NCBI GenBank assembly: GCA_963734545.1
Contig: CAVTHO010000006.1
Span: 288,001 to 352,000 of the forward strand
DNA: 64,000 bases
Source of the DNA: an uncultured Spirochaetota bacterium
Lineage (GTDB): Bacteria; Spirochaetota; Spirochaetia; SZUA-6; Fen-1364
Direction of reading: 5' to 3'
Positions 12,426-58,362 of this stretch are shown here, in pieces (the stretch's first letter is position 1; each line of letters begins with the position of its first letter). A program made the position numbers and the translations under genes. The notes beneath the pieces are model-generated. The model was not told the origin of the DNA, made no database searches, and saw only the letters and a program-made list of their open reading frames with translations.

Positions 12426-12430
12426 GACCG

Positions 12431-27665: not shown

Positions 27666-30344
27666 ATGATTCAATTCACATTGAATGGCGACATTGTCGA
27701 GGCGGAAGGTGAGGGGACGCTCCTTTCCTACCTGCGCGGGGTGGCTCTCCTTACCGGGGCAAAGAACGCCTGCGGCGAGGGGACCTGCGGCGCCTGCTCG
27801 GTTATCGTGGACGGGTCCCTGGTCACATCCTGCACAATTCCCCGGTCGAGAAGATGGCCGGCAAATCGATCATCACTGTGGAAGGAATCCAGAAAGCCGA
27901 GATGGACGCCTACGTGCGCGCCTTTGCCGACGCAGGGGCGGTCCAGTGCGGGTTCTGCACGCCGGGCATGGTGATTGCCGCAAAAGCCCTGCTCGACAGG
28001 AACCCGAGCCCCACGGAGGCCCAGGTACGCACCGGCCTGCGACGGAACCTCTGCCGCTGCACGGGCTACGGGAAGATCGTGGCAGGTGTGCTTCTTGCGG
28101 CGCGCTACAGGGCTTCTGCCTCGGGGCATGTTGACGCTGCGGCCGCAGCGGGCGCCGCGGCGCCGGCAGCTGCACCGTCCGCGGCCGCCGGCATCGGGGC
28201 GCGGGTGCGCCGCGTGGACGCCGCGGCCAAGGCGCGCGGAAGCGCAATGTACGTGGACGATTTTTCCGAGCCGGGCATGCTCTTCGGCGCCGCGCTCAGG
28301 ACTCCTCATCCGCGCGCCCGCCTGGTTTCGCTGGATGTCTCCGCGGCGCGCGCGCTTCGCCGGTGTGGCCGCGGTTGCGACGTGGAAAGAGATCCCCGGC
28401 AACCGGTTCACCGGGCACGTTGTTGCTGACTGGCCGACGCTTGTGGCCGTGGGAGAAGCTGACCCGGTACGTGGGAGATGCGGTGGCCCTTGTTGCCGCG
28501 GAGTCCCCCGAGGTTGCCAGGGCGGCCTTATCGCTCATCAGGGCGGAATACGAGATTCTCGAGCCGATGCGATCACCCGAAGCCGCGCTTGCACCCGGGG
28601 CCCCGGCAATTCATCCAAAGGGAAATGTGCTCACCCGGCTCGCGCTCAAACGAGGGGACGCGGAAAAGGCAATTGCATCTGCCGCGCATGTCGTGCATGC
28701 CAGCTTCGAGACGCCGTTCACCGACCACGCATTCATGGAGCCGGAAAGCGCCCTCGCGTATCCCCCTGACCGGGACGGAGTGGTCCTGGTTCTCACGGGG
28801 GAGCAGAACGTGTACGACGGCCGGAGGTACGTGGCGGATACGCTCGGCCTTCCCCCGGAGAAAGTGCGCGTGATCTCGGCATACGTGGGAGGAGGGTTCG
28901 GCGGAAAAGAAGACCAGACGGTTCAGCACCACGCCGCTCTCCTTGCCTGGCTTTCCCACCGGCCGGTCAAGTGCACGCTGGGCAGGGCGGAGAGCATGCG
29001 CGTGCACGTCAAGCGGCACCCGATGTCCATCAACCTGAGCATGGGCTGCGATGCGGAAGGCAGGCTGGTCGGGTATCAGGCGCGCATCGTGGCGGACACC
29101 GGCGCATATGCCTCCCTCGGCGGACCGGTCCTTCACCGCGCGGTTGCTCACGCGGGCGGCCCGTACGCCTACGGAAACATCGACGTCGAGGGAATGGCCG
29201 TTTTCACGAACAATCCGCCTGCCGGCGCCTTCAGGGGATTCGGCGTGCCCCAGGTCAATTTCGCATTCGAGAGCGCCCTCGATCTTCTGGCGGAGAAGGC
29301 CGGTCTCTCCCCCTGGGAGATACGATTTCGCAACGCGGTCCGTCCGGGAGACATGCTTCCCAACGGACAGATCGCAGGTCCGGACACTGCCCTGGAAGAA
29401 TGCCTCCTTGCTGTGAAGCTCGATTTCGACGCAGCGCCCGGCCGCGCGGGAGTGGCGTGCGGCTTCAAGAACACCGGGCTCGGCATGGGACACAAGGACG
29501 TGGGACGCTGCGTGCTGAAGGTCGAGCCCGATCACGTCGAGGTCCGCACCGGCGCGGCCTGCATCGGCCAGGGGCTTGCCACGGTTCTCACGCAGATCGC
29601 CTGCGATGTACTCTCACTCGATCCCGCGCGGGTGCGCGTCGCGCTTCCCGACACCTTCAACACCCCGGACTCGGGCACGACAACCGCATCCCGCCAGACG
29701 CTGGTGACAGGAGAGGCCTGTCGGCGCGCGTGCATTGCAGCGCGCGAGGCGCTGGAGGGGGCGGGGGTAGGGGCGGGCGGCGAACGGGCAGGCGCCTTCC
29801 CGCTGGCGGTGCTGGCCGGCAGGGAGTTCCGCGGCGAGTATGAGGTGATTACCGATCCTTTCGAGACAGACAAGACCAATCCAATCCGGCATGTAGCGTA
29901 CAGCTATGCCTGCCAGTTGGTGGTCCTCGGTGAGGACGGCCGGATCGAGCGCGTCGTAGCGGCCCATGACTCAGGCGTGGTGGTGAACCCTCTCGCATTC
30001 GAAGGCCAGGTCGAGGGAGGGGTTGTCATGGGGCTCGGGTTCGCTCTCACCGAGCGCTTTCCGCTTGTCGACTGCGTTCCCACTGCCAAATTCGGACAGC
30101 TCGGACTGCTCCGGGCCACGGACGTGCCGCCCGGTGAGACGATCATCATCAGGAAGGCTCAGGCGGCGGGCGCGGCCGGCGTGGGCGCTGAACGGCTGCG
30201 GCAACCGGCGCCGCATACGGCGCCAAGGGCATCGGCGAGATCAGCTCGATCCCTACGGCCGCCGCGGTGGCCGGTGCGTACTTCGCGCGGGACGGCAAGC
30301 TCAGGACCAGCCTTCCTCTGGACGGAACGCCGTACAGCAGGTGA
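27666..30344 (+). CDS. xdh: Selenium-dependent xanthine dehydrogenase-like molybdoenzyme (2Fe-2S + Moco domains), frameshifted
   Basis: CGEGTCGAC, QCGFCTPG, NLCRCTGY, HAFMEPE, GGGFGGKED, AFRGFG, SGTTTASRQT, KGIGE. Confidence 0.85.
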
Positions 30345-30430
30345 GGACAATCGATTGATCGGGACACGACCGTCCTTGTTTCCACGAGGGAGGTGTGCCG
30401 TTAACGGTTCGAGTCCGACAGGGGGAGCCA
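30225..30430 (+). repeat. Direct repeat copy 1: xdh 3' end + spacer + tRNA-like 3' fragment (att-like)
   Basis: Matches 58158-58362; ends GGTTCGAGTCCGACAGGGGGAGCCA (T-loop, acceptor strand, CCA), followed by hairpin + T-tract. Confidence 0.9.
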
Positions 30431-31955
30431 GAACTGGACAGGTCGTCTCAGACGAGGCGGCCTGTTTTTTTGTGTCTTGGTGGTGCGCCGCGCCTCTTGG
30501 GCGATCCGGTGGATGATGTCGAACGGTGGCTTGAAGGCCGGGACCACCTGGTCCTGGTCGAGCGTCGAGCCCGGGCAGGATGAAGCCCAGGAGCGCCGCG
30601 CGCTCCGCTTGGCCGTGGGTCCGGAAGAACTCCTGGGCGTTCCGCGCGATCTCCAAGAGCCGGATCCCCTGCTCGATGTAGTTCTGGTCCGCCTTCTCGT
30701 GGCGTTCGATCCGGGCCCGGATCTGGGCTTGCTCCTCACGCCACGCGGAGACGTTGCGGCGGTAGAACGCTTCCTCGATCTCCCCGTCCAGCTTGTCCAG
30801 GTAGATCTGGTCGATGCGGTTCTGGAGCTTGGCGTACTGGGCGTTCAGCTTCTCGATGGCGCGGCGGTGGAACTCCGCCTTCTCCTTCTGGCTCTGGCGC
30901 AGCGCCTCCCGCATCCAGTCGAGCAGGGCCTCGGAGAACTGAAGCTCCCCGAGGATGTCCTCAAACTGCCGCTCCAGCTCCTCCTCCCGCACGTACAGCC
31001 CGCCGCAGGTGCCCTTGTCGAAGGTGCAGTGGTAGTAGATGTAGCGGTCCTTCTTGATCTCGGCGGTGATGGCGCAGCCGCAGGCGGCGCACTTCAGGAG
31101 GCCGGTGTAGGGGAAGCGGTGGGCCGTGGCCCGGGTGTCGTTTCTCTGCGCGGCGACGGCCTGGGCGCGGTCAAACAGCGCCTTGTCGATGAGCGGCGGG
31201 TGCTTGCCCTGGTAGCGCTTGCCGTTCCAGAGGAAGGCTCCCGTGTAGAAGGGGTTCTTCAGAATCTGGGCCACCGAGCTGCGACTCACGCGGCGGCCTT
31301 TGCGGGTGGTCAGCCCCTGCCGCGCGGCCAGCACCTCAAGCCTGCGGATGGAGAACTTGCCCGTGGCGTACTGCTCGAACATCTGGCGGATGATCGGGGC
31401 GCGCTGCGGGTCCAGCTCGATGGTCTTGTTGGTCTTGTCGTGCAGGTAGCCCAACGGCGCGTAGGCGGGAAACTCTCCCTCTTCCGCCTTCTCCTGCATG
31501 CCCTTTCGGGTCTCCTCGGAGAGGTTGTCGATGTAGTTCTTGGCCATCAGCACCTTGATGCCGTGGATGAACTTCTCATGGGACCGGGAGTCCTTGTTCA
31601 GCACCGAGCCTTCCTTGACGAAGATCAGCGTCACGTCCAGCTCGTCGATGGTCACGTAGTCCTTGAAGTTGCGGTACAGGCGGTCGGTCTTCTCACAGAG
31701 CAGGATTCGCACCTGGGGGTGCTCCTCCAGAAAGCGGATCATCTCGGTGAAGTGGGTGCGGCCGGACTGCTTGGCGGTCTCAACGTCGATGAACTCGCGG
31801 ACGACCTGGTAGTCGTGGCGGCGGGCGTAGGAGCGAAGCAGCTTGCACTGGGCGGGGATGGAGTAGCCGTCCCGCTCCTGCTCCTTGGAGGAGACTCTGG
31901 CGTAGAGAACGGCTTTGCTGGAAAGAAGCCCGTTCGGCTGCATCTCCTCCCTCAT
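30401..31955 (-). CDS. Large serine recombinase (integrase), frameshift near 3' end
   Basis: YARVSSKEQ catalytic Ser, DRLYRN, APLGY, ILKNPFYTG, GKHPPLI, zinc ribbon C..CG..YYHC, coiled coil; C-terminus WLPLSDSNR reads through the tRNA fragment. Confidence 0.93.
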
Positions 31956-32038
31956 GCGGTCAGCTTCAGCCTCCTACGGTCCCCGCCTACCGTCCCTGGT
32001 AGGCGGGGCATCTTGGCGCGGCGCAAGGACGCGCCGCG
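31811..32038 (-). repeat. Inverted repeat A (LSR leader + first codons); partner at 36543-36769
   Basis: Near-identical reverse complement; hairpins CGCGGCGC..GCGCCGCG and CCCCGCCTACC..GGTAGGCGGGG. Confidence 0.92.
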
Positions 32039-32126
32039 CGCCCCCCAAATCCCAAAAACGCGCTCCATACTATCCCTTCAAAGACGGTTGTCAATTGAAG
32101 ACCCCGCACAAGAGCACTCCGATGGA

Positions 32127-35100
32127 TCACGCTATTATCGCGTCCAAGACAAACGACTCTATTCTGAGGCCCGAAGATTCGCTTGTGATCGCCTCCGCCT
32201 GCCCCTCGAGGTAGGATCTAGCCTTTTGAAGCGTCTTCCACTTAGGGCGATAATCCGGCGGAATCCCTGGAACATCGAAGTATGCAACAACGAAAATGCC
32301 GTGGGTCAACCCATTGTCGCGAAGGTAGCGGTCGACAAGCTGGTCACGCATCGCGGTCCTACAAGTGCTGTTGTAAGAGTTCTTCACTTCCACAACGACG
32401 CTAAGCATCGTTTGACGAGGTTGCTGTAACGGGACCTGGACCAGTATGTCAGTCTCCTGGCCGGGCTTTCCCCCAAGTTTCCGTGCCACCAGCCGTCTGC
32501 GCAACTGCGTTTCTCGTGTGGCCACCAAGAAGTAGTCTTCCCCCTTCTTGCTGATTACGTGAACCAAGTTGTCCGAAACGGCCTCTTCATTTTTTGGCGT
32601 TGGAGATTGGCCGCGAGGAAGGTTCCAGAGATTCGATGAGAGCGGAGGCGGTCCGCGCAGGGAGCTCTGATACTCGTCCAACGCATCGACTACTAGGTCG
32701 AGAACGTCATCGTTGGATCTTAGCAGCTTTGCGCCGCTATCACGCAAGACCCAGACGACTTCCCGAAGATCAATCGGTGACCAACTTTGCATTCGTTCGT
32801 TGCGTTCAGCCTCAGAACGCGCAAAGCGGAGCCATGGATATTCACGACCGTACTTGCTTTCGATATAACGGACGGCGTCCACGGCATCCGGTGTTCCCTT
32901 GCCAGCTAGGAGGGAGAGAAGCCTGCTACGTAAAAAGACCGCCGAGTCCGCGGGACCAACAAAGTGTGCGCCTTCGTGCTGCGGATCGTCTCTCGGGGGG
33001 TAGGCCTGAAATAGCAAATCTAGCAACGTGCCTTGCTGTGGATCGCTCATTAGCGACAACCACGCGGTCTCGGTCCCTGGAATATGCGCCAAGCTGGAGA
33101 GGGTGGCCTTACGCACTCCCGCGCGCCGGCTTAGTACGAAGAATACTTTCTCGCAGCTACCGGGCGGGGAGCGACTTTAGGAGAGCCACCGCCGCGCGCA
33201 CGGCGGCATCCGAGCTCGCTGAATTCCGGGAAGAGACCGGCTGAAGCAAAGGGGCATGGCGGTTTCTGGAGCTCTCCTAAGCGACTCATCCATGACAAGG
33301 CTTAGGTTGTCGCCTCTTACCGCCTTGGCATGGATTAGTCGGCATATCGTGCTATTGAGGCGCTCGTCACTGACCTCTCCAAGTGCCTCAAAAATCGAGC
33401 CAAGGACACTGAAGCCTGACGGATCGCACGCAACTACCTTGATCCGCCGCCAAATTGCCTCAGGTAGGATGTCGTACGCAAGTCGCATGAGGAGTCTCTT
33501 GGGCCCCATCGGTTCCTGATCCAGCCGGTATCTGGTTTCTCTAACCACATACCAAATCCATATTTTCCAGATTCTGTTGCTGAGTGACTTCAAGAATGAA
33601 AGATCAACCTCGGCCAGGAGAAAGAAAGCCTCCATGACGCCGTCCATCGGTATGGTAGAGTACTCCTCTTCCTCTACGCGAGATGCCAAGTCGGTACAGT
33701 CCGTGACCAGTCGCTTCGCGGCCTCAACGATCTCCGCCCGGTCCTCTGGGCCCGCTTCTGCCCAACCCTCTGTTCGCACAATGAAGCGCGCAAATCTTTC
33801 TCGCCCGCGTTCGTCCATTGCTATGGCCCGGCGAAAGCCCGGCAAACCAATGAGGATCGTATTGGCATCTGGAAAGATAGCTGGTGACCACTTCCCTCCT
33901 AACGGCGTGTGTTTCCCCTTGCTCCTTTTCTCCCTCTCGCATCAGCCTGAGAAAGCGGCGTCCTGTCTCAGCTTCCTTTGAATCCAGTCGAACCGCAAGC
34001 GGAGGGAAATGGGACACAACAATAGGCTCGGCTCTCGATTGGTAGAGCAGATCAAAGCAGGCGTCATAGTTCTGCCATGGCAGCCAAGCGGCCATCTTGG
34101 CGAAGCTATCGGCCGCCGGCGAGCGACCTGAAATCGCCTTCTGCAGAAGCCATCCGAAATCCTGAACGTCGGCCAGGGCCGGCACCGACCTCAGGCCCTG
34201 GAATAGCTCCATCTCAGATGGGGCAAGCTTGGCAATGCATTCCAGCATAGAGTGCCGAAGTTGAGTATCCCTTTCGAATCTTGAAGCTATGGTCGCAGTA
34301 TCGTTCGTGGTCAGGAGTTCCTTACTCTTTCTATGAAGGAAGAAGGGTGCTGCGCCAACGCTTCCCGCTCGGATCACCCGGCTTGATAACTCCATGCAGA
34401 TCTCGTCTTGATCGGCCAAATCGAGAGCTCGGTAGGCGATAAGGCCAGCGATTTCCGATAATGGATCATCATGATGACGTCTCTTCCCCACTGAAGAAGC
34501 CCATTTGAGCACTTCGAGGTCAATTTGAGGCAGGGGGACAGCGCCCTGCGTCATCATCCACAAGAAATACTTGTAGGGCCCCATGTAGTTGCTGGCCTTT
34601 GGCGGCGAAAGTACTTGCAGGAGCTCTGAATCGCTCATATTCCAAGGCCAATTCAGTTGAAGGGCGAGGCCCTTCAGGTCGTCTTGCACGTCTTCTGGGA
34701 GGCCAACAGATAGAGGTTTGAGAGCACCTTTGCTCGATTCATTCCCAATCTCAGAAATCGCGTGGCCGCATTGAACGCGTGTTGCCAAGGGCAGGCTTTG
34801 GTCCAATGCCATCCGAGCCAAGTCCATGGCAAGTCCGACGAAACCGTTGCTTTCTGCCACCTTAATGGCAAAGGAGTGAACGTCCGCTGTATTCCCTGCT
34901 CTCTCAGCCAGGACTCGCCTTATATCGTCCTCAACTCCGTCATAGAAAAATCCTGATGTAAGGGCTTGATCTTGATGAACCTGAGCCTCCGTAAGACGCC
35001 CTGCCTTGAACATCTCAATTGTGGCTCTGAATGCGACTTTTCGAATTTCGTAGCTAGCAACTTCGCTACGGCCGATGAGCTCCGGGTCAGAAGTCGATAG

Positions 35101-36213
35101 CCAACCGGCAAACTCTGGATTGAAGCTCGCCGCCCACGCAGCGATCTCTTGTAAGGGACCAGCAATTCCGGATGCGTGCCCGCCGTCTCTGCTTAGCATC
35201 GAGCGAACCTGAAAGAGCGGCATTGTTGAGATTTTCTTTCCGGCAAGGAACTCCGCAATCTGCCGGTGTATGAAGCGGGCCCATTGGAACCCGGCACTAG
35301 TGAAGAGACCAGTTTCGCGAAGCGTCCGTAGCCCGTCGGCGTCGAATCCCAAACCCTCGAGCACTGCGATGTCGATTGAGCTTCCCTCAATCGTGCCTGA
35401 CCGAGACAAGCCTATCGACTCAGCCCCGGACAACAGCATCGCCGCGGCTACCTCCCCTGCCAGCCGTACGCAAGCGTCGACATTCGTCACCCGTGCTGTT
35501 CTACGCTCGTGTCGATCGAATGGGTCTTCGCACAGACGCCTAACCGCTCTGTCGAACAACTCGATTCGGCTACTGATTACCAGCCTGCCGGCCTTCCGAA
35601 ACTCGTCGATCAACATCCGCAACGTCATGGGGCGAGTGGCTAGTGAGAGAAGCTTCATTTCTCGGACAGAACGGGCAAACTCCTCAGCCTCAACGCCCTC
35701 TGCTGCCGCCGCTGTCCTGATGTCGTCTATGTCAAGCGGAAGAAGTTCAGCGACATGGACTTCGTCATGACCGTACACCTCGGACAGCGCCCTGACGAGG
35801 AAGCTCGGCCACACAGTGGATCTGCACGCGATTCGCAACGATGGCTTCTGTCCAAGAAACTTAGGGACCCAGTTGGAAAGCACATTCCCAGCCAGCGGAA
35901 CAGGCACCATTGCCTCGTCAAGGGCATCAAGCGCGAGCACGCCTTTACCGTCGGTCTGGGCAGCCAGGCTCTCGATTTCGGCCCTGAGGCCCGCCGCGTC
36001 GCTTACCAGTTCTCCAAGGCTCTTGCTACTGACAAGGCGACCTTGTTCGCGCTCAACCGCCGCAAGAACAGACAGTTCGTGCGTCTTTCCTAGACCAGCT
36101 GCGCCGAGCACGCACACGACCTTGAGCTCGGCCAAGTCGCGGGTGCGGACTTCTCTCTCGGAACCTTTTTCACGAATCGACCAGCGCCGATCTAGCGGCC
36201 AGTTGCTGCTCAA
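32127..36213 (-). CDS. Large STAND/NACHT-like NTPase with C-terminal PD-(D/E)xK-like nuclease domain, frameshifted
   Basis: ORFs 33724-36282, 33177-33845 and 32127-33116; Walker A GAAGLGKT, Walker B LALDALDE, LRIACR, FIHRQIAEFLA; C-terminal TDILV..VEVK; lower GC. Confidence 0.72.
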
Positions 36214-36542
36214 GCTACCCCTCCAGCACTTCTCTATAGCACATCCCTTCCTCAGAGTATTACGCGCACACGTCCCGTTCAAGCGTCCATGCGATCGTGC
36301 CTTTCAAGGCTGAAGCGACTGAGCGCTTCAGCCTTGAGATAACATAAAGGATTTGGAATCCATCTTGATCCTGAGGGGCTGAAGTATGGTGACCACTCAC
36401 CGTCGTCCCGCCTGATCCAGCTCTCCGCCAACACAACCAAGAAATGCGCAACCTCTTTCCCCAACGTGATGAGGCAGCTGAAAGAGGGCAGCCAGCGTGA
36501 CAATCTTCTGGGTCACCAAGTGTGAAGTATGACGAGTTGGAC

Positions 36543-36962
36543 CGCGGCGCGTCCGTGCGCCGCGCCAAGATGCCCCGCCTACCATGGACGGTAGGCGGGG
36601 ACCGAGGAGGCTGAAGGCGACCGCATGAGGGAGGGGATGCAGCCGACAGGGCTTCTTTCCAGCAAAGCCGTTCTCTACGCCAGAGTCTCCTCCAAGGAAC
36701 AGGAGCGGGACGGCTACTCCATCCCGGCCCAGTGCAAGCTACTTCGCTCCTACGCACGCCGCCACGACTCCGGGTGGCCGCTTCCGGGCATCGGTCGCGG
36801 GCCGACCGCGTGCCGACGCGCCCCAACGTCCTGTTGGGGCGCTCATCTGAAGAGGGCCAGAGACACGCGGCAGGGACGCCGCGCGTCTCTGGCCGGGGGG
36901 GGTCATCAAGAAAACAAGCATACTTGGGTGGCAATCCTGTTTCTCTTGCACGATGCCAGTTT
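36543..36962 (+). mobile_element. 420-bp miniature, internally deleted copy of the LSR element core (repeat A + LSR 5' stub fused to repeat B)
   Basis: 36543-36769 is the inverse of 31811-32038; about 36764-36962 is the inverse of 45928-46126. Confidence 0.75.
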
Positions 36963-49018: not shown

Positions 49019-49054
49019 AAAAAAGAGGTCGCCCACGAGCCTGCGGGCGACCTC
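49019..49054 (-). terminator. Rho-independent terminator
   Basis: GAGGTCGCCCGC..GTGGGCGACCTC hairpin followed by a T-run on the minus strand. Confidence 0.7.
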
Positions 49055-49095
49055 AAGACAGCTATGGTAGCGAATGCTCGCCTGATTCTTTCGCC

Positions 49096-50021
49096 TTAGA
49101 ACTGTATGCCGACAAACACCCCGGGCCAGAAGCGCCGCTCTTTGCTGCTGAAGCCGAACTCGTATCCGTGAAGGGGTGGAGGGTGATGCTGGTGGCGTTT
49201 GTATTGCTCATGTAGTTGAAGGAAACCCCGCCGATAAGCGAAAAGAAAGAGAAGTTGTATCCCAGGTAGACCCTGGCTCGAAAAAGGCTCTCATACTCTA
49301 CGGCGATAGCATCCCGGGGGGAGACCACGCTGTAGATCCCCTCGACGTTGAGAAACACCTTGTCCAGGGGGATATGAACTCCCATACCAAGTCCAGCGGT
49401 CAGATCTTTGCCCTGGCTGTCCACGCCCACTGTGTAGATGTTGTAGACGGTCTTCGTCCCGTGTATCAGGGCCAGATTCGTCAATCCCATTTCATCGTAC
49501 CAGGATTGCGCATGGGTCTGTCCGTTCTTGAGCACAATACTGACCAGTCCTATGGGTATGCCGTCATTTTCTTCCGCGACATTGACCACACCCAGTTGAA
49601 CGCCTCTGGCGCTCTTGCTGATATTCACCACTCCGGCCTGGGCAAAGGGCGTGCTTTTTGCATAGTTGAGCACCCCAGCCTGAGCGCCATTCGCCGTGCC
49701 TAAGACTGTGTTGACCACACCGGCCTGGACTCCGGTGAGATCCCCGGACACCCAGTTAGCCACCCCGGCTTGAACTCCCCCTGCATCTTCTCCGATGATG
49801 CTGACCACCCCGAGGGCCGCTCCTCTGAGCACATCGGCGTATCCGGCCACGACGTTCAGTTGTACGATGTTGATCGTCTTGTTTCCGGCGGCCTGCCCAA
49901 AGCTGATCATGGGAACCAGGGAAAGATTGACCGGTACCACAGCGTAGCTGTCCTCCGCGATCACCGTTGTGGATGCCACCGCTGCGAGAAGCAGTACCAA
50001 TAGAAAACCTCTCTTGTTCAT
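49096..50021 (-). CDS. Secreted surface-repeat protein (LA_2272-like G.Q.G.VN repeats) with beta-rich C-terminus, frameshift near 3' end
   Basis: Signal peptide; repeated GVQAGVAN/GVQAGVVN/GAQAGVLN; alternative frame ends GIQF*. Confidence 0.65.
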
Positions 50022-50105
50022 TGTCCTCTCCTTGTTCTGATGAGTTTGTTGTCTATCTCCTACAGAGATCTGTGCCAATAGAAACCCGAAACGGGTGTCG
50101 AAAGA

Positions 50106-50155
50106 CATCGATCAACGGATTGAGAAGGGCGCCGGAGCATCGATCAACGGGTTGA
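50106..50155. promoter_or_regulatory. Putative LuxR-type operator, copies 2 and 3
   Basis: CATCGATCAACGGATTGA and CATCGATCAACGGGTTGA, 32 bp apart. Confidence 0.65.
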
Positions 50156-50231
50156 TTCGTGCACTTCGCGTAGGAGATGTGGCGTCGTTTGACGGCGGGG
50201 CGCTTTGTGGATGGAGCACGGAACGCTTGAG

Positions 50232-50276
50232 CGCCGTACGGCAGGTGAGCACAGACGACTAATCGGGACGCGCCCG
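50232..50276 (+). repeat. Degenerate third copy of the xdh 3' end/spacer
   Basis: CGCCGTACgGCAGGTGAGcACAgaCGAcTaATCGGGACgCGcCCG matches about 30328-30372. Confidence 0.7.
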
Positions 50277-50281
50277 CGGGC

Positions 50282-51148
50282 TTACCCCTTCACGGCTCCG
50301 AAGGTCAGCCCCCGCACCAGGTATTTCTGGAAGAAGAGGGTCAGGATGACTCCCGGGAGGATGGCGATCAGGGACAACGCCGAGATCTCCCCCCAGGGGA
50401 TCTCGTGCCCTCCGGTCATGCCTGCAAGCGTAATGGGAAGGGTCACCGCATGTGAGCGTGTGAAGATGAGCGCGAACAGGAACTCGTTCCAGGAAAAAAT
50501 GAAGACGAAGAGGGCCGTGACCGCAATGCCCGGAACGGCAAGGGGAAGGACGTATTTGCGGAACGCATGGAACCTCGAGTATCCGTCCAGAAGCGCGGCA
50601 TTTTCTATTCCCTGGGGAATGTCCTCGAAGAAGCCTTTCATGATCCAGACGGCAAAGGGCATGTTGATGAGGATGTAGGAAAGGAAGAGAACAGGGTACG
50701 TGTCGAGTACCTTCAGCGTCTTCCAGATCATGAACAGCGGCATGGTGGCGATGACGGGAGGGGCGAACAGGAGCGAGAGAACGAAGAAGCTCATGTTGTC
50801 CCCGCCCACCTTGAAGCGCCCCATGCTGTAGGCCAGGAGGACGCCGAAGCCTATCACCAGGACGGTATTGGCGAGCGCGACGACCAGGCTGGAAACCAGA
50901 GCCTCTGCGCCGCCAAAGGTCGTCAACCCCCTGACGAAGTTTTCGAAATCGAAGTGGCTCGGCCAGAAGATCGGCGGATAATGGTAGAACTCCCCTTCCA
51001 CCTTGAACGCGCCGACCGCGATCCAGTACACGGGGAACAGGAAGATGACGAAGAAGATGAGGATGAGGAGGAAGCGCAGCACCGTGAAGAGCGTGCGGAT
51101 GCGCTTCCGCCGGGCGAGCTCTTCCCTGTTCAAGGCGATCGTGTTCAT
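50282..51148 (-). CDS. Carbohydrate ABC transporter permease
   Basis: IP..IENAALLDG, FIFSWNEF, QKYLVRGLT.GAVKG. Confidence 0.92.
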   Translation of the reverse strand: MNTIALNREELARRKRIRTLFTVLRFLLILIFFVIFLFPVYWIAVGAFKVEGEFYHYPPIFWPSHFDFENFVRGLTTFGGAEALVSSLVVALANTVLVIGFGVLLAYSMGRFKVGGDNMSFFVLSLLFAPPVIATMPLFMIWKTLKVLDTYPVLFLSYILINMPFAVWIMKGFFEDIPQGIENAALLDGYSRFHAFRKYVLPLAVPGIAVTALFVFIFSWNEFLFALIFTRSHAVTLPITLAGMTGGHEIPWGEISALSLIAILPGVILTLFFQKYLVRGLTFGAVKG

Positions 51149-52053
51149 GACTCCTTGCCCTCCCTGCGATTCATGACAATGCCGATGAAGAGCTTGGCGA
51201 TGACCGTGATGATGATGAGCTGGACCACCGCGATGGCGGCCGACATGCCCACGTTGAAGCTCTTGAACCCCATGATATACGTGAGAACGCTGAGAGTTTC
51301 AGTCGATACTCCGGGGCCGCCGCCGGTGAGGATCTGGACCGGGTCGAAAATCTTGAAGATGAAGATGATCCTCAGGAGGACGACCAGCGTGAACATGGGC
51401 CGCAGGAGCGGCATGGTCACGCGCCAGAGGGTCTCGCGGGCGGATGAGCCGTCGACGCTGGAGGCTTCGTAGACCTGCTTGGGAATGGCGGAGAGACCGG
51501 CCAGAAGGACGACCATGACGAAGGGCGTCCACTGCCAGGTGTCCATGATGAGAATCGAGGCCATTGCGAGAAGCGGCTTGGCCAGCCATGCCGGGGGAGT
51601 TACTCCGAAGAAGCTCAGCAGGTAGTTGAGCGGTCCGAACCGGTTGTCCAGGATGATCTTCCATTCGAAGCCCGCGACCACCGGGGTGATCATGACGGGG
51701 ATCAGGAACAGGGCGACGATGACCCTGCTGCCGGGGAACTTCTTGTTGAGGAGGAGGGCCAGGACCAGGGCGAGGAACGACTGAACCGGGATGCCGATCA
51801 CCATGATGATCATGCTGTTCAGGAAAGCGTTCCAGAACCGGCCGTCAGTGAACAGGTTCCCGTAGTTCTCGAACCACGCGAAGCGCGGCGGCATGGGTGT
51901 GGCCAGGGTTTTCACGAAAAAGCTGTTGAACAGCATGTAGGCCAGGGGACCGACGACAAGGAGGATGAGAACGACCATGCCGGGGAGCGCCACGAGGCGC
52001 GCAAAGCGCTTCTGGCTCTTCTCAAGAGTGAGGATGTTTTCCAAGCTCGCCAT
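51145..52053 (-). CDS. Carbohydrate ABC transporter permease
   Basis: WQWTPF, YEAS.VDG, LTGGGPG..TETL. Confidence 0.92.
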   Translation of the reverse strand: MASLENILTLEKSQKRFARLVALPGMVVLILLVVGPLAYMLFNSFFVKTLATPMPPRFAWFENYGNLFTDGRFWNAFLNSMIIMVIGIPVQSFLALVLALLLNKKFPGSRVIVALFLIPVMITPVVAGFEWKIILDNRFGPLNYLLSFFGVTPPAWLAKPLLAMASILIMDTWQWTPFVMVVLLAGLSAIPKQVYEASSVDGSSARETLWRVTMPLLRPMFTLVVLLRIIFIFKIFDPVQILTGGGPGVSTETLSVLTYIMGFKSFNVGMSAAIAVVQLIIITVIAKLFIGIVMNRREGKES

Positions 52054-52132
52054 AGCCGATCTCCCCCCCGCAAGGGCGCCGCTCACGCCGTCCCTGGCTG
52101 CGGTGCCCCTCGCCATCCTTGGCTAGGAAAGA

Positions 52133-52162
52133 GAGCCCGCCGCCGAGGCGGCGGGCTTTTTT
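52133..52162. terminator. Stem-loop between SBP and permease genes
   Basis: AGCCCGCCGCC-GA-GGCGGCGGGCT flanked by T/A runs. Confidence 0.65.
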
Positions 52163-52175
52163 CCGTCCTTCGAAT

Positions 52176-53615
52176 CTAGTCCTTCCAGAACCCGTGCTTC
52201 TTCCACATTTCGAGCATTGAGTTGTAGATCTTCTTCTGCTTCGCCGCGTCGAGGTTCTGCGTGATCTTGTCCCACGACGCCGCGGCCGTGTTGAGCGCCT
52301 TGGCCGGGTCAGCGGTGCCTGACAGCGCGCTTGTCACCGCTACATCCAGGGCATCCAGGTAATCGGCGGAGCCGGGGATGTTGATGTCGGGGAAGATGTG
52401 GTTGAGGTTGTCACCGACTGCATCGAGGTATTCCTTGGCGTCCGCCGCGGATCCGAACTTCTCCCATGCCTTGATGTTCTTGAAATGAGAGATGCGGTAA
52501 GGATCCTCACCTGCGTCATTCGACGTGACGGCCTTGATGCTTTCGTCATTGCTGAGCATGGATGCCACCCAGAAGGCCTCCTTGGGATGCTTGGTGGTCG
52601 TGGGGATGCCGAGGACGCGGCCGACAGGCGCGGCGGCGCGGAAGTAGATGGACCCGTCCGCCTGCTTCACGCCGGGTACCTGGGAAACGCCCGCGTTGTG
52701 GAGGATGAACTTCGTGGAGAACTTGGGGTCATTGGCCTTCTTCCAGACGTCGGACCACTGGATCATCGTGGCAACGCGGCCCTGGAGATATGCGTTCATC
52801 AGCTCCGTGTACCCGAAGCTCATGACGTCGGGAGGGCAGTACGGCATGAGGTTTTTCAGGATGTTGATGGCCTGGACTCCCGCCGGGGAGTTGATCTGGG
52901 GCTTCATGTTCCTGTCGAAGTAGGCGCCGCCGAGAGACCCGAAGACGTTGCTCCACCAGGCATACGCGAAGCCGCGCGCCCCGAGGAACGCAAAGCCGTA
53001 GAAGTCCTGGTCCAGCGTCTTGCCCGCCAGCATCTCGCCCTTCTTGCGCGTGAAGAACTGCGCGACCTTGGCCAGGTCATCCCAGGTCCTGGGCACCGCG
53101 AGATTCTGGCCGAACTTCGCCTTGAACGCCGTCTTCTCCGCCGCGTTTGAGAAGATGCTCTTCGCGTAGTACAGGTTCAGGATATCTCCGTCGTAGGGCA
53201 GGGCGTACGTCTTGCCGTTGTACATGTCATAGAGGTCGCGGTACGCGGGGATCACGTCACCCATCATGGGATCATGGACGGAGAACAGCGGGTCCAGCGG
53301 CTGGAGGTAGCCGAACTCGGCGAACTCGCCGACGTACGGGGGGTAGAAGATGACCACGTCGTACGCGCCCGTGCCGCCGACGAACTCGGTCTTCAGCTTC
53401 TCATAGACCGAGGTGAACGGAACGCCCACAACATCGATGGTGATTCCCCTCGCGGCTGCCAGGGGCTTCAGCCACTCCACCGGGTTGAGGTTCTGGCCCT
53501 CGTCACCATAGACCGTGATCGTCACCTTGGCCTGGGAGAACACCGGCAGGGCGGCGATCATGAGCGCGGCGACAAGGATCAGGAAGAACTTCTTAGTGCC
53601 GATCATACTCATCAC
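52176..53615 (-). CDS. Carbohydrate ABC substrate-binding protein
   Basis: Signal peptide, YNGKTYALPYDGD, VPRTWDDL, PQINSP. Confidence 0.9.
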   Translation of the reverse strand: MMSMIGTKKFFLILVAALMIAALPVFSQAKVTITVYGDEGQNLNPVEWLKPLAAARGITIDVVGVPFTSVYEKLKTEFVGGTGAYDVVIFYPPYVGEFAEFGYLQPLDPLFSVHDPMMGDVIPAYRDLYDMYNGKTYALPYDGDILNLYYAKSIFSNAAEKTAFKAKFGQNLAVPRTWDDLAKVAQFFTRKKGEMLAGKTLDQDFYGFAFLGARGFAYAWWSNVFGSLGGAYFDRNMKPQINSPAGVQAINILKNLMPYCPPDVMSFGYTELMNAYLQGRVATMIQWSDVWKKANDPKFSTKFILHNAGVSQVPGVKQADGSIYFRAAAPVGRVLGIPTTTKHPKEAFWVASMLSNDESIKAVTSNDAGEDPYRISHFKNIKAWEKFGSAADAKEYLDAVGDNLNHIFPDINIPGSADYLDALDVAVTSALSGTADPAKALNTAAASWDKITQNLDAAKQKKIYNSMLEMWKKHGFWKD

Positions 53616-53653
53616 CTCCTAAGAATGTTGAGTCTCACTCGACGAACGTCGAG

Positions 53654-54751
53654 TCAATGGCCAGGACGCATCCGCATCGTGGTCTCCACGTCATAGAACA
53701 GGACCTTCTCGGGCTCGAAGGAAAACGAGACTGCCTGGTCGAGCTCCAGGCGCAGGCCCGCATCGCCGACTTTGAACACCAGGTCCCCCGCGCCCAGGGT
53801 GAGGGAGGCAAGGGTGAAATCTCCGAGCACCTCGAACGTGTGCACGCGGCTGTTGATGTACCCCGGGCGTCCCGCCGTCCCCACCAGCAGGTTCTTGGGA
53901 CGGATGCCGATGATGAACTTCGGCTTGTCGGGGACCGCAGGAAGGCGCAGGTCGCTCAGGGCCACTTTCTGTCCCGCGATCGAAAGCAGGTCCCGTCCGC
54001 CGTCTCTCACACGCTCGACGGGGAACGTGTTCATGGCCGGCTCGCCGACAAAGCCGGCCACGAAAAGGTTCTCCGGGGTATCGTAGATCTCCTCCGGAGT
54101 CCCGATCTGCTGCAGCTCGCCGTCGTTCATGACGATGATCCTGTCCGACATGGCAAGCGCTTCAAGCTGGTCATGCGTGACGAACAGGGCCGTGAGCTTC
54201 ATGAGCTTCTGCACCCTGCGGATCTCCCCGCGGAGCATGACGCGTTCGTTCGCATCCAGGTGCGAGAGGACCTCGTCCAGGAGAAAAACGGAGGCGGACC
54301 GCACCAGTGCGCGCGCGAGGCCGGTCCGCTGCTGCGCCCCGCCGCTCAGGGACGAGGGACGCTGATTCTTGTAGGCCGCGATTCCCAGGGAGTCGCACAT
54401 GGCGTTGACCTGGCGCTCGATCTCGCTCTCCGGGGTTTTTCGGATTCTCAGGGGATAGGCGATGTTCTCGAATACGGTGAGGTGCGGGTACAGCGCGTAG
54501 GACTCGAAGGCCATCGCGATATTGCGGTCGCCGGGCTCCAGCTCGTTCACCCTGATGCCGTCGATCAGGACATCGCCCCTCGATATCTCCTCCAGCCCCG
54601 CGATCATCCGCAGGGTGGACGTCTTCCCGCAGCCCGACGGCCCGAGCACGGAGATGAACTCCCCCTCGTTCACCGTCGCGGAGATCCCCTTCACCGCCTC
54701 GAAGTGGTTGTCGTAGATCTTCCAGACCTGTTTCAGCTCCACGGTTCCCAT
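53654..54751 (-). CDS. MalK-like ABC ATP-binding protein
   Basis: GPSGCGKT, LSGG, VTHDQ, C-terminal TOBE region. Confidence 0.92.
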   Translation of the reverse strand: MGTVELKQVWKIYDNHFEAVKGISATVNEGEFISVLGPSGCGKTSTLRMIAGLEEISRGDVLIDGIRVNELEPGDRNIAMAFESYALYPHLTVFENIAYPLRIRKTPESEIERQVNAMCDSLGIAAYKNQRPSSLSGGAQQRTGLARALVRSASVFLLDEVLSHLDANERVMLRGEIRRVQKLMKLTALFVTHDQLEALAMSDRIIVMNDGELQQIGTPEEIYDTPENLFVAGFVGEPAMNTFPVERVRDGGRDLLSIAGQKVALSDLRLPAVPDKPKFIIGIRPKNLLVGTAGRPGYINSRVHTFEVLGDFTLASLTLGAGDLVFKVGDAGLRLELDQAVSFSFEPEKVLFYDVETTMRMRPGH

Positions 54752-54752
54752 G

Positions 54753-55844
54753 CTATGCCCCCGCTCCGATCCGCTCGCCGCTCGCGCCGTCGAAAAGGTA
54801 CACTGCGCGAGGGTCCAGTCGGATGAACACGCGCTGATTGATGTCGAAGCGCGTGCCACGCGGCGTGAGGACCTTTACGAGACTGTCGCCAACCATTATG
54901 GAATAGACCCTCGTGTCCTCAATCTGCTCGGAAACGTAGACGGAGCCCTCGATGCAGTTCTCCTCCTCCCGCTGCTGGAGCGCCGCGGTGAAATGACGGA
55001 ATCCCAGAACTACTTTTCCGCGCGCCGGCCCCGCGGAAACGCCCCGCAGGGAGACATTGCGGTCCCCAAAGGACAGGACCAGCCCGCCGTTTTCCGCGCG
55101 GGCGTCCTCGAAGCGAACGAGGTTCATGGGGGGCTCGCCCAGCAGGGTAGCAACGAATATGTTGCGGGGACGGGAGAACACTTCCTCGGGAGGGCCGATC
55201 TGCACCACCTTTCCCTTGTTCAGGATGACCACGGAGTCCGCAAGCGCCAGCGCCTCGCGGTAATCGTGGGTAACGTAGATCATGGTCTTGCCGAGGTCCT
55301 TGTGGATTCGCTTGAACTCGCCCCGCATCCGGTGCCGCAGCTTCGCATCCAGGTGCGCGATGGGTTCGTCCAGGAGGTAGATTTCCGCGTCCCGGATGAG
55401 ACAGCGCGCGAGAGCCGTTCTCTGTTTCTGGCCTCCGCTGATCTGGGAAGGGAGTTTCTCCAGGTGCTCATCGATGCCCAGAAGCTTCGCGGTCCGCTTC
55501 ACCCGGCCATCCAGCTCTTCCCGCGCCACCTTGCGCACCCTCAGAGGCGAAGCGATGTTTTCGTATACGGAGAACGTCGGGTACAGCGCGTAGTCCTCGA
55601 AGACCATCGAGATGTTGCGCTCCTGCGGGCTGATGGACCTGAGACTGGCGCCGTTCCTGATGACATCCCCCGAGGTCTCCTGGAGGATGCCGGCGATGAT
55701 TTTCAGTGTCGTGGTCTTGCCTGCACCGGAAGGCCCCAGGATCACGGTGAAGCTCCCTTCCACGCAGGAGAAGCTCACGTCATCTATTCCCTTGACCCTG
55801 CTGTACTGTTTTATGAGGTTCCTGATCTCGAGGTAATCAGCCAT
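54753..55844 (-). CDS. MalK-like ABC ATP-binding protein
   Basis: GPSGAGKT, ISGGQKQR, DEP, VTHD. Confidence 0.92.
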   Translation of the reverse strand: MADYLEIRNLIKQYSRVKGIDDVSFSCVEGSFTVILGPSGAGKTTTLKIIAGILQETSGDVIRNGASLRSISPQERNISMVFEDYALYPTFSVYENIASPLRVRKVAREELDGRVKRTAKLLGIDEHLEKLPSQISGGQKQRTALARCLIRDAEIYLLDEPIAHLDAKLRHRMRGEFKRIHKDLGKTMIYVTHDYREALALADSVVILNKGKVVQIGPPEEVFSRPRNIFVATLLGEPPMNLVRFEDARAENGGLVLSFGDRNVSLRGVSAGPARGKVVLGFRHFTAALQQREEENCIEGSVYVSEQIEDTRVYSIMVGDSLVKVLTPRGTRFDINQRVFIRLDPRAVYLFDGASGERIGAGA

Positions 55845-56026
55845 CGCCGCGATCCTTTCGAGTCAGTAAAGAATGGCTTTCTAGATCGCGCTAGTATAGA
55901 GTTCGGAAAAGTCAAATGTCAAGCAAATTGATTTTGTTTCCTGAGAGAAGTAGAATACGACGGCATGATACGCCGCCTCCGGGCCGCCCAGCGGGCTCGG
56001 AGTCCCTTGCATGAAGGGAGGACACA

Positions 56027-57106
56027 ATGACAGGACGGGTCAGCCTGGACAGGAGCGCGTTCACCGACCGGGAGAGGGTCCTCTGCGAGGCGGGCAGCCT
56101 GCGAGCCGTGTCCTTCCTCTTCTCCACGGGCGTCGCCGGATTGCGTCTCGAAAACTCCCGCGGGCACATCGTCGTGCTCCCCTGGCAGGGTCAGCAAGTC
56201 TGGGACGCCGTCTTCGACGGCCGCCGCCTGACCATGCAGACCGTTTTTCCCGAACCCGTGCCCACCGTCCACCTGCTGGACTCCTATGGTGCGTTCCTCT
56301 ACCACTGCGGCGCTCTGCGCATGGGGAACCCCGGGCCCCAGGACAGTCATCCTCTTCATGGCGAGCTCCCGACGGCTCCCTACCAGGAGGCATGGCTCAC
56401 CTTCGGTGAGGACGAGGCCGGAGCCTGGATGGGCGTCTCCGGCGCGTACAGCTACGCGAAGGCTTTCGGCGACAAGTACCGTGCGGTCCCGACAGTGAAG
56501 CTCCACGAGAAGGGGACCGTGCTCGACGTCTCCATGACGGTGGAGAACCTCGCGCACTTTCCCATGGACCTCATGTACATGTGCCACGTGAACTTCCTGC
56601 CTGCGAAAAACGGGGAGATCATCCAGGCCGCGGGGTGGGACACCCGGGACATGACCGTGCGTTCGAGCATCCCCGCCCACGTCAAGCCGACCCCGCAATT
56701 CCTCGCGTTCATGGAATCGCTTTCGAAGAATCCCGGCGTCACGCGGATCATGCGGCCCGAGGACGAGTACAACCCCGAGATCGTCTTCTACATCCGCAAC
56801 CTCAAGCGGGACCCGGGCGGCATGACGCACATGCTCCAGAAGCACCCGGACGGCTCTTCGGACTACGTCGGCTGGGACCCGAAGGTGCTCGATCACGCGG
56901 TACGATGGATCCTCGTGCACGCGGACCAGAAAGTGATGGGCATGGCGCTGCCGTCGACATGTGATCCGGAGGGCTACACGGCAGAGAAGCAGAAGGGCAA
57001 CGTGCGCAGCATTCCGGCCCTGGGAAGCGTCACGTTCGCCGTCAGAGCCGGGTACCTGGACGCCGGGGAAACCCGGAGGATGGAATCCGCGATCCGTTCA
57101 CTGTAA
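56027..57106 (+). CDS. DUF4432/aldose 1-epimerase-like protein (DeoM-like mutarotase)
   Basis: LPWQGQQVWD, YG.F..HCG...MG.P...D.HPLHGE, YMCHVNF, ALPSTC.PEGY. Confidence 0.8.
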   Translation: MTGRVSLDRSAFTDRERVLCEAGSLRAVSFLFSTGVAGLRLENSRGHIVVLPWQGQQVWDAVFDGRRLTMQTVFPEPVPTVHLLDSYGAFLYHCGALRMGNPGPQDSHPLHGELPTAPYQEAWLTFGEDEAGAWMGVSGAYSYAKAFGDKYRAVPTVKLHEKGTVLDVSMTVENLAHFPMDLMYMCHVNFLPAKNGEIIQAAGWDTRDMTVRSSIPAHVKPTPQFLAFMESLSKNPGVTRIMRPEDEYNPEIVFYIRNLKRDPGGMTHMLQKHPDGSSDYVGWDPKVLDHAVRWILVHADQKVMGMALPSTCDPEGYTAEKQKGNVRSIPALGSVTFAVRAGYLDAGETRRMESAIRSL

Positions 57107-57136
57107 GACGTCCCCTGTAGCGATGGAGGAAGCAGA

Positions 57137-58058
57137 ATGGCCAGGCCGAGAATTACCGTCGTGGGAAGCAACATGGTCGATCTCATCACCTATATCCGCC
57201 GGATGCCGAAGGAGGGGGAGACCATCGAGGCCCCTCGATTCGAAATGGGCTTCGGCGGCAAGGGCGCCAACCAGGCGGTGGCGGCGGCGCTCCTCGGCGC
57301 CGAAGTGTGCATGGTGACCAAGGTCGGAGACGACCTGTTCGGGCCCAACACGAAAAAGAACTTCGAGCGCTACGGCATCGACACGAGCCACGTCGATATC
57401 GTGCCCGGAGTTTCGAGCGGGGTGGCTCCCATCTTCGTCGACGAGAAATCGCACAACAGCATCCTCATCATCAAGGGCGCCAACGCGCACCTCACACCGA
57501 AGGACGTGGACAGGGCGAAAGACAGGATCCTGAAGAAGCGACGTCGTGATCATGCAGCTCGAGATCAGCCTGGAGACCGTCTACCACACCATCGAGCTGT
57601 GCGCTTCGCGGAAGGTCCCCGTCATCCTGAATCCCGCGCCCGGGGACCCGGCGCTCGACGTGGGTAAGATTCGAAGCGTCTCCTTCTTCGCTCCGAACGA
57701 GACCGAGCTGCAGACGCTCACCGGCCTGCCGACGGGAAGCCTCGAAGAGGTGAAGGCCGCGGCGCGAACCCTCCTGGCCAAAGGGCTTCCGAAGATCATC
57801 GTGACTCTCGGGGAGAAAGGCTGCCTGCTCCTTACGGCGGAAGGGGAAACGCTCGTGCCGGGCTTCCGCGTGGCGAGCATGGACACCACCGGCGCCGGTG
57901 ACGCGTTCATCGGCTGTTTTGCCGTGTACTTCGTCGAGACCCGGGACGTCGCGAAAGCCCTGGAAACCGCCAACCGGTACGCGGCTCTTTCGACGATGAA
58001 GCCCGGGACGCAGAAGTCCTTCATTGACCGCAAGGGCTTCGAGGCGGCAGACCGGTAA
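57137..58058 (+). CDS. rbsK: Ribokinase/deoxyribokinase (PfkB family), frameshifted
   Basis: GSNMVDL, GGKGANQAVAAA, LNPAP, PNETE, DTTGAGDAF. Confidence 0.85.
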
Positions 58059-58157
58059 GGGGAAAAGGGGCGCGCCGCCGCCGTGCAGGACAGGCATTCA
58101 TCGCCCACTCTGAAACCCAGGGACCACCTCGTTCTCCTCCTCCCCTTTCTGCTTATC

Positions 58158-58362
58158 AAAGGCATCGGTGAGATCAGCTCGATCCCCACGGCTGCCGCTG
58201 TTGCAGGCGCGTACTTTGCGCGGGACGGAAAGCTCAGATCCAGCCTTCCTCTGGAGGGAACGCCGTACAGCAGGTGAGGACAATCGATTGATCGGGACAC
58301 GACCGTCCTTGTTTCCACGAGGGAGGTGTGCCGTTAACGGTTCGAGTCCGGCCTGGGGAGCA
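58158..58362 (+). repeat. Direct repeat copy 2: orphan xdh 3' end + spacer + tRNA-like 3' fragment
   Basis: KGIGEISSIPTAAAVAGAY..PYSR*, identical spacer, then GGTTCGAGTCCGGCCTGGGGAGC. Confidence 0.9.

Follow-up and report, generated by a model that had tools for sequence, protein, structure and literature searches.

Repeated xdh 3' ends, tRNA-Asn fragments and serine recombinase modules in a layered island of an uncultured Spirochaetota bacterium

The end of xdh and its copies

The 64,000-nucleotide (nt) stretch of DNA analysed here, referred to throughout as the window, comes from an uncultured Spirochaetota bacterium (lineage SZUA-6; Fen-1364; assembly GCA_963734545.1, contig CAVTHO010000006.1, positions 288,001 to 352,000 of the forward strand), whose genome is represented by 5.14 Mb in 10 contigs with 89% completeness and 4.9% contamination. 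It carries the gene for an xdh-family molybdopterin oxidoreductase (27854-30344, + strand), recognised in Pfam by its 2Fe-2S, hammerhead and MoCoBD domains and split over frames in the assembly, and behind this gene an island in which the 3' end of xdh recurs together with fragments of a tRNA and the gene for a large serine recombinase (LSR). Immediately 3' of xdh lies its native spacer, designated X (54 nt, 30345-30398, +), followed by a fragment derived from tRNA-Asn(GTT) (30399-30430, +) that consists of an anticodon-loop vestige CGTTAAC, the T-loop GGTTCGAGTCCG (30406-30417), the 3' part of the T-stem, the acceptor strand and CCA. Behind the fragment, at the end of the recombinase module, stands a terminator-like hairpin with a T run (30436-30474, +), and the succession of GGACAGG, hairpin and T run is conserved in the loci of relatives. 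The recombinase gene itself, LSR1 (30400-31955, − strand), is read toward xdh from the opposite side.

The last 39 codons and the stop of the resident xdh (copy 1; 30225-30344, +), spacer X and the tRNA fragment form the left member of a direct repeat, 30224-30428 and 58157-58361, with 92% identity over 205 nt (blastn E 6e-77). The right member begins with copy 2, an orphan xdh 3' end of 39 codons and stop (58158-58277, +) that is fused at 58156|58157 to a truncated permease gene, and continues through a second spacer X (58278-58331, +), identical to 30345-30398, into a second tRNA-Asn-derived fragment (58332-58362, +) with the same T-loop (58339-58350), another acceptor strand and no CCA. There follows a second terminator hairpin, after which about 18 nt still match the LSR-proximal flank of a locus in a sister species (G014:C8) before the homology stops (58372-58421, +). 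Copy 3 (50229-50276, +) is a decayed orphan made up of the last codons, the stop and 28 nt of spacer, 7 of which differ; it aligns with 30325-30372 of copy 1 at 81% identity over 48 nt (E 2.5e-7). Blastn gave no significance to a faint likeness between 58085-58135 and the flank at the LSR 3' end. The original prediction, made from this DNA alone, had reported the recurrence of the xdh end, spacer and tRNA fragment 28 kb away and a decayed third copy, and the alignments bear out both, the third copy being real but short.

The coding parts of copies 1 and 2 (30225-30344 and 58158-58277) differ at 13 nucleotides in 13 codons, of which 11 are synonymous and two cause conservative exchanges (T/S and D/E), and our codon comparison thus gave the same count as had been put forward earlier. 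The longest identical run measures 94 nt (30324-30417 and 58257-58350) and comprises the last seven codons of xdh, the stop and 73 noncoding nt up to GAGTCCG, so that the identity previously noted for some 70 noncoding nt between the stop and GAGTCCG falls within it. The two copies part 3' of GAGTCCG, again as had been noted, and each continues into its own acceptor strand and its own terminator-like hairpin (30436-30467 and 58372-58398). Random changes in coding DNA would usually be expected to be mostly nonsynonymous; 11 of the 13 changed codons are synonymous, and copy 2 therefore evolved inside a working xdh gene, which agrees with the earlier proposal that the orphan came from a functional allele. 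Further support for that proposal came from the distances over 120 nt, with copy 2 about as far from the resident xdh (13 differences) as from the xdh of G014 and from that of L122, a contig recovered in a metagenome scan (14 each). The corresponding distances of copy 1 were 11 to G014 and 7 to L122, and the three xdh ends of the window and those of G014 and L122 are all distinct alleles.

ARAGORN found no tRNA genes in the window, no Rfam family reached threshold there, and the Rfam tRNA model gave no match at E<=10 in 30300-30480; because of the ARAGORN and tRNA-model results, only the 3' fragment is regarded as tRNA-derived. Set beside the genome's true tRNA-Asn and beside the fragments of relatives, it proved to derive from tRNA-Asn(GTT). 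The true gene, on another contig (L003 1451-1524; 68.5 bits with the Rfam tRNA model), agrees with the fragment in T-loop and acceptor pattern, and the GGACAGG hairpin with its T run recurs behind it. A search of the genome with the T-loop and acceptor pattern gave five matches, all on the forward strand, and none with the reversed control. Only one of the five is a tRNA gene; two are the copies in the window, one is an orphan behind another gene, and one is a fragment that lies 805 nt downstream of the tRNA gene. A toxin-antitoxin-like gene pair separates the true tRNA-Asn from its downstream fragment, and the full order at this locus (L003; G000:C4:68885-71948) is the tRNA gene, an element-type terminator, the gene pair and the second fragment, with a 47-nt remnant of an LSR 3' end about 700 nt beyond. 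Seen through the features by which the Islander program recognises islands, the window has displaced 3' tRNA fragments (30406-30428 and 58339-58361, both +) with an integrase gene, LSR1, between them, and an intact tRNA gene at neither end.

The recombinase module and its tRNA-associated relatives

On the open reading frame (ORF) at 30162-31955 (−), Pfam matches to PF00239 (4.3e-23), PF07508 (1.6e-17) and PF13408 (1.3e-9) give LSR1 the Resolvase, Recombinase and zinc ribbon domains of a large serine recombinase. Its last 150 nt or so need at least two frame corrections to match those of relatives, and 1-nt indels occur elsewhere in the assembly. Frameshifts also split xdh, hsdM, pfkB and a MalT-like gene (LSR1 included, within window 27660-30570 and 43490-61135). 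The xdh orthologue of G014 is a single ORF of 920 amino acids (aa); four 1-nt indels set the window gene apart from it, at least two of which fall within short homopolymers, and because of this we treated the frameshifted genes as probable errors of a long-read assembly rather than as gene decay and called no pseudogenes.

The whole LSR1 module occupies 30399-32055, and four genomes of the same genus (G001, G006, G013 and G014) carry an LSR 92-95% identical to LSR1. At three same-genus loci (L019-L021) only 30406-32055 (−) is shared with the window, at 90-92% identity; this comprises the tRNA fragment, the terminator, the LSR gene and about 95 nt upstream of it, and the cargo beyond differs from genome to genome. 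Three of the four same-genus LSR loci reach the junction on the tRNA side, the contig of the fourth (G001) ending at 30513 and leaving the flank uncovered. In these three of four, the shared sequence starts at or beside the T-loop, and to the left of the fragment stands different DNA each time: a katG spacer in G013, another gene at G014:C8 and other DNA at G006:C42. As sharing is confined to 30406-32055, the mobile unit is therefore a module of 1.65 kb with variable cargo behind it. On the xdh side, the sister species G014 (G014:C7) is collinear with window 10400-30398 at 87-89% identity, and its homology ends at 30398, 54 nt past the xdh stop and 8 nt before the T-loop; past this boundary G014 has other genes and no tRNA fragment. 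The repeated module may accordingly be read as a seam, composed of a native part (the xdh 3' end and its 54-nt spacer) and the end of the mobile LSR module, and not as one attachment (att) site, a view for which we find the balance about even.

The original prediction had taken the whole module to be the att site of the LSR, which would have integrated serially, regenerating the site each time, with the noncoding part conserved by the needs of the enzyme. The LSR gene directly beside copy 1 speaks for this, as do the further LSR remnants beyond copy 2 and within the island, the T-loop, which is present in both full copies and is the part common to all junctions compared, and the tandem arrays at one site that are known for other integrases (10.1101/2020.12.28.424599; PMC4383910). 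The start of same-genus sharing only at the T-loop region, with other DNA to its left in the three of four loci that reach the junction, runs counter to it. Large serine recombinases are established to pair attP with attB, and attL-like hybrid sites are not known to serve as partners of attP; if the whole module were the site, the right half of both full copies, which is of the element type, would be at odds with that rule.

Besides LSR1, the island holds the remains of two other LSR modules, which brings the total to three: a near-intact module, a 5' stump and a group of scrambled pieces. The stump, LSR3 (36543-36769, +), is inverted and retains the first 48 codons (36625-36768, 96% identical); it forms the right arm of an inverted repeat, A, whose left arm is the 5' end of LSR1 with its upstream DNA (31811-32038). 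The scrambled gene, LSR2 (62001-62194), has one piece in direct and two in inverted orientation (90-95% nt identity), and its pieces correspond at the protein level to residues 372-405 and 224-245. An LSR remnant was also located at 61995-62153, overlapping this stretch. Related modules or their remains also follow katG in G013, once intact and once decayed, and at the katG site of G019 a tRNA fragment has a trailer like that of the true tRNA-Asn locus. That site belongs to an array, L114 (G019:C92:5000-14232, reverse), in which six tRNA-Asn 3' fragments lie within 7 kb, with katG and a toxin-antitoxin-like pair between them; behind each fragment comes an element-type terminator or a trailer resembling the one at the true tRNA-Asn. 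ARAGORN calls no tRNA in this array, and the Rfam tRNA model gave no match at E<=1 on the fragment arrays of L114, L101 and L103. A simple before-and-after pair at the LSR junction of G014:C8 was sought and rejected, the orthologous gene in G001 and G019 being followed by antisense tRNA-like sequence (recognised by eye) and then by other DNA.

The relationship of this recombinase to tRNA genes was followed across its family in a scan of one genome per species, the genomes often being incomplete, which yielded 571 confirmed relatives and 80 loci that were kept. A convergent full tRNA gene lies within 500 nt of the LSR end at 57 of the 80 loci, mostly 82-142 nt away (22 tRNA-Asn-GTT, 26 tRNA-Gln, 9 other); of the remaining 23, nine had too little flanking sequence and in 14 no tRNA was found. 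One relative 75% identical to LSR1, from a Spirochaetales metagenome-assembled genome, sits against a full tRNA-Asn gene. At 56 of these 57 loci (L023-L098) the LSR frame, when extended from the match, overlaps the tRNA in antisense by at least 10 nt; among the 22 tRNA-Asn cases, 13 have the stop 42 nt inside the tRNA, and in L025 this stop is the TAA of the anticodon loop. As judged from these reading frames, the C-terminal tail of the recombinase may depend on whether the element is integrated or excised. In two genomes with canonical LSR-tRNA pairs (those of L096 and L034), a search for a second copy of the tRNA 3' end with 25-26-nt patterns and at most two mismatches found only the tRNA itself.

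Integrative elements that use large serine recombinases include those of phiC31, Bxb1 and the SCCmec Ccr enzymes. LSR1 has the same architecture of Resolvase, Recombinase and zinc ribbon domains as these, and, as in such elements, its gene is the outermost one, next to the attachment site. The family differs from them in that even its nearest homologues in 50,697 phage records reach no more than 30% identity, and in that it lies against tRNA genes and reads antisense into them. The Islander database paper stated that targeting of tRNA genes is unknown for serine integrases (PMC4383910), and one predicted exception, a Paracoccus phage at tRNA-Met, is mentioned in another paper (PMC6536676). No description of the present family was found in the literature searched, which is not proof that there is none.

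It is possible, if doubtful, that the LSR beside xdh belongs to a family of serine integrases that is large, spans phyla and is directed at tRNA genes, chiefly those for Asn and Gln; its enzymes would have a tail that differs between the integrated and the excised state and, in this spirochaete-like genus, would also use tRNA-like sites outside tRNA genes, seeding cassette arrays beside xdh and katG. We regard the LSR family found against tRNA genes as the lead with the greatest promise. If the preferred reading of the locus, given below, is right, the locus points to serine integrases tied to tRNA genes; tools that pair tRNA fragments with tyrosine integrases would miss such serine-integrase islands, and tRNA-targeting serine integrases could be possible tools for genome engineering with ubiquitous target sites.

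Layers, seams and the identical block

The right-hand side of xdh was compared among the window, G014, L122 and G002. L122 carries a fourth xdh allele, and its homology to the window xdh locus ends 4 nt past the stop codon; beyond a gap of about 57 nt, its DNA matches window 45988-46618 at 80% identity in the opposite orientation. In G002, about 35 nt separate xdh from the downstream region of katG, which is inverted there, the joint falling at TTCGAA within a T-loop-like sequence. From these four lineages we therefore count four different right-hand neighbours of xdh. At this G002 locus (L007; G002:C22:1-2999) katG and xdh are convergent and about 190 nt apart, and the katG side ends in GGTTCGAA, where it meets the xdh side; the joint looks as if two T-loop sites had recombined in inverted orientation. 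The right-hand boundary of the variable region was not found in the 20 kb that follow the window, where neither G014 nor G002 is syntenic save for a single 0.8-kb match in G002.

A second line of evidence on the construction of the island is its sugar block (50277-58156), which contains an ATP-binding cassette (ABC) transporter, DUF4432, a PfkB kinase and the first 20 or so codons of a permease, and which corresponds to a contiguous region of G009 that matches window 50277-55956 and 57123-58153 at 88% identity. In G009 the PfkB gene is followed by the permease; the window keeps about 20 permease codons and switches at 58156|58157 to the codon at position -39 of xdh. The block starts one base after copy 3, so that both of its edges coincide exactly with orphan xdh ends. 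Copies 3 and 2 thus bracket the block, and the left edge of copy 2 is an illegitimate joint of two truncated genes. Nothing of the remaining permease turned up elsewhere in the genome (at its 89% completeness), and a simple tandem duplication within the genome, which we considered, is unsupported for the same reason. By Pfam the block has no recombinase of its own; LSR1, LSR3 and the LSR2 remains lie elsewhere in the island. A left edge that is a joint with a truncated permease is no product of an LSR crossover, and this, together with the lack of a recombinase in the block, is further evidence against the whole module as an att site.

The joint at 58156|58157 bears equally on whether copy 2 might be an assembly artefact, produced when two strains' haplotypes were joined during metagenome assembly. 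The 89% completeness and 4.9% contamination of the 10-contig assembly would allow for this, as would the many frameshifts in window genes, and no public run contains more than 23% of the sampled words of 57600-58900, nor does any contig aligned there bridge 58156|58157. The contigs of four wetland runs on 56500-60500 come from relatives and stop at 58153 or start near 58158, and give no verdict on the assembly or on excision. Assembler misjoins generally arise at shared repeats; the joint brings together two unrelated truncated genes without a shared repeat, the 13 coding differences and the entirely different right halves show that the copies are no collapsed or doubled repeat, and a 94-nt identity is short for contigs of this size. 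We consider an artefact most improbable.

The same joint is the only novel one that would be needed if the segment had arrived in a single event, as a circular 28-kb molecule that carried an xdh-end fragment from illegitimate excision in a related donor, with copy 3 already inside, and entered by one homologous (Campbell-type) crossover at the shared xdh end; such a segment could leave again through the 205-nt repeats. Direct repeats that flank the segment, an identical central block with flanks diverged on both sides, and the rest of the permease not being found in this 89% complete genome would all agree with such an arrival. What it leaves unexplained is the identity of the spacer beside a coding part that differs by 13%, and the remnant of a third xdh allele at the left edge of the sugar block, and it needs the same extra conversion step as the model that we prefer. 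A single event of this kind seems to us quite improbable.

The identical block of 94 nt had been taken by the original prediction as a sign that the noncoding part is constrained as a recombination site. Between copies 1 and 2 there are 13 differences in the 99 nt before the block and none in the 94 nt within it (Fisher p = 1.7e-4), so that the contrast itself is marked. Among lineages, however, the spacer is not conserved above the neighbouring synonymous sites: the G014 spacer matches X in 40 of 56 aligned columns, set against 109 of 120 positions (11 differences) in the adjoining coding part, and L122 lacks the spacer. This does not support the proposed constraint, and since the identity of the spacer is not the mark of long-term constraint, it must be recent. 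Combined with the extent of same-genus sharing, the permease joint and the element-type right halves, it makes the whole-module att site unlikely.

As the recent event behind it we infer gene conversion, of which the block would be the tract, a crossover that left the block as its footprint, or a subsequent allelic replacement of xdh that ended here. The block begins and ends within stretches that are invariant among the copies compared, 25 nt around the xdh stop, identical in copies 1 and 2, G014 and L122, and the 12-nt T-loop, and it is in such invariant stretches that recombination would be expected to have its end points. Copies 1 and 2 also share the junction CCGTTAAC|GGTTCG, which in comparison with the longer G019 fragment looks like an anticodon-loop vestige with a 13-nt deletion; the shared junction fits a block that is one allele present twice. 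In the metagenome scan, an exact 32-nt pattern spanning X and the T-loop had no matches, and the 25-nt pattern at the xdh end was found in one contig, L122.

Based on these data, layering by an LSR module combined with serial displacement of the xdh 3' end is in our opinion the best reading, and we hold it with moderate confidence. Under it, an LSR module from a family that usually stands at the 3' end of a full tRNA gene would here have settled 54 nt after xdh, without an intact tRNA, and everything to the right of 30398 would be a variable region built in layers. The orphan xdh ends would be earlier versions of the xdh 3' end that were pushed downstream: incoming DNA from related lineages would bring its own xdh end and different downstream DNA, recombine through xdh homology on one side and join illegitimately on the other, and leave the previous end downstream. 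A circle inserted by a single crossover would yield the same map. The orphan ends do belong to different alleles, lie downstream of a full gene in the same orientation and have abrupt left edges, and the DNA after copy 2 is spacer X, as after xdh in G014. The serial accretion at xdh that had been proposed thus stands as far as layering is concerned, given the stop of synteny at 30398, the remains of three LSR modules and the sugar block bounded by orphans, and is not supported with respect to the whole-module att site.

Several observations weigh against this layered reading, or at least against parts of it. An empty site, with xdh and X next to an unoccupied tRNA-like site, was present in no relative, since G014, G002 and L122 each carry other DNA there, and therefore no before-and-after pair demonstrates an insertion. 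Displacement predicts a donor in which xdh is directly followed by the sugar block, as at copy 3; none was found in the relatives searched, and in all six genomes with both, the two are on separate contigs. Every single-crossover model predicts two independent spacers, so that the identical X calls for an extra event (conversion or later allelic replacement), which is an ad hoc step. We also tried X as a member of a family of tRNA-like 'arms', that is, as an element-borne arm or the decayed 5' half of a tRNA, after noticing by eye its likeness to the sequences left of other tRNA-Asn fragments (the katG arms of G013, G019 and G002 and the arm on contig C4 of the own genome, G000); a hidden Markov model built from 15 arms gave no match to X at E<=10, and the idea was dropped. 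The assembly also has many 1-nt indels. The boundaries, remnants and joints are observed in the sequences, and the order of the layers, the enzyme for each step and the origin of the identical block would follow only from the model.

The island resembles two known kinds of architecture. In tRNA-gene islands, as the Islander (PMC4383910) and tycheposon (10.1101/2020.12.28.424599) papers describe them, direct tRNA 3' fragments lie between cargo blocks with a recombinase beside a fragment, as here, and in tycheposons new elements push older ones inward, leaving partial tRNAs and integrase fragments (bioRxiv 10.1101/2020.12.28.424599). Shared too are the further recombinase remnants and fragments deeper in the island and, at the true tRNA-Asn of the same genome, with its fragment 805 nt downstream, a textbook small case. 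The window differs from such islands in that its recombinase is a large serine recombinase, no intact tRNA is present, and the repeats also carry the end of a protein gene.

In the second kind, the Rhs, contact-dependent inhibition (CDI) and type VI secretion system (T6SS) arrays, a full gene is followed by orphan 3' ends in the same orientation that belong to different alleles, start abruptly and have their former downstream DNA attached; the orphans at xdh look alike, the downstream DNA being that of another lineage (G014) in the case of copy 2. For the T6SS and Rhs arrays, anchor recombination, strings of orphan 3' regions and homology-facilitated illegitimate recombination have been proposed (PMC5361080). 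Unlike these, xdh encodes a metabolic enzyme and no polymorphic toxin, and its displaced ends encode nearly the same peptide (two conservative changes in 39 residues). Because the displaced peptides are nearly identical, there is no apparent selection for new C-termini or for retained immunity genes, and the xdh orphans look like by-products. A variable region built in layers is in itself a known kind of genome architecture, with tRNA-fragment islands and 3'-end displacement arrays as the closest parallels. If the preferred reading is true, an ordinary metabolic gene can act as the fixed anchor of a fast-changing region, and its discarded 3' ends would record, like strata, one import after another from related lineages. 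On the same reading, two repeats may share an identical noncoding block that need not signal functional constraint.

Cargo and internal boundaries of the island

The cargo of the island is a mosaic. Directly behind the LSR1 module lie three ORFs (329, 222 and 852 aa; 32130-36282, −) that match nothing in Pfam or PADLOC and have a GC content of about 0.56. They are followed by a type I restriction-modification operon (36989-45476, −) that encodes HsdR, HsdS and HsdM, the last of these in two frames, and that also encloses a gene pair for a DUF4411 protein and an M78 peptidase. This pair stands between hsdR and hsdS, and the HsdR-like subunit (36989-39982, −) has a C-terminal S24 (LexA-like) peptidase domain. 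A second inverted repeat, B, brackets the whole 9-kb operon, its left arm (36799-36962) being 96-100% identical to its right arm (45928-46093), and judging by this arrangement the restriction segment could be invertible by recombination between the arms. Repeat B is also present in L122, the contig that carries an xdh 3' end.

The stretch that is 80% identical to the DNA about 57 nt past the xdh stop in L122 (45988-46618, −) overlaps the right arm, takes in most of a 204-aa ORF (45884-46495), and has a T-loop-like sequence, GTTCGAGTCGG, near 46610. Between it and copy 3 lie a CAAX-protease-like gene, a LuxR/GerE regulator and a 348-aa ORF of no assigned family (47040-50108, −). In the intergenic region left of copy 3 (50108-50160), the motif CATCGATCAACGGrTTGA occurs twice, 31 nt apart, and the pair may be an operator for the neighbouring gene. 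Beyond copy 2, the island continues at 58474-61924 with a DUF6326 gene and a MalT-like regulator (58474-61135, +), the latter with AAA_16, TPR_MalT and GerE domains and split over four frames.

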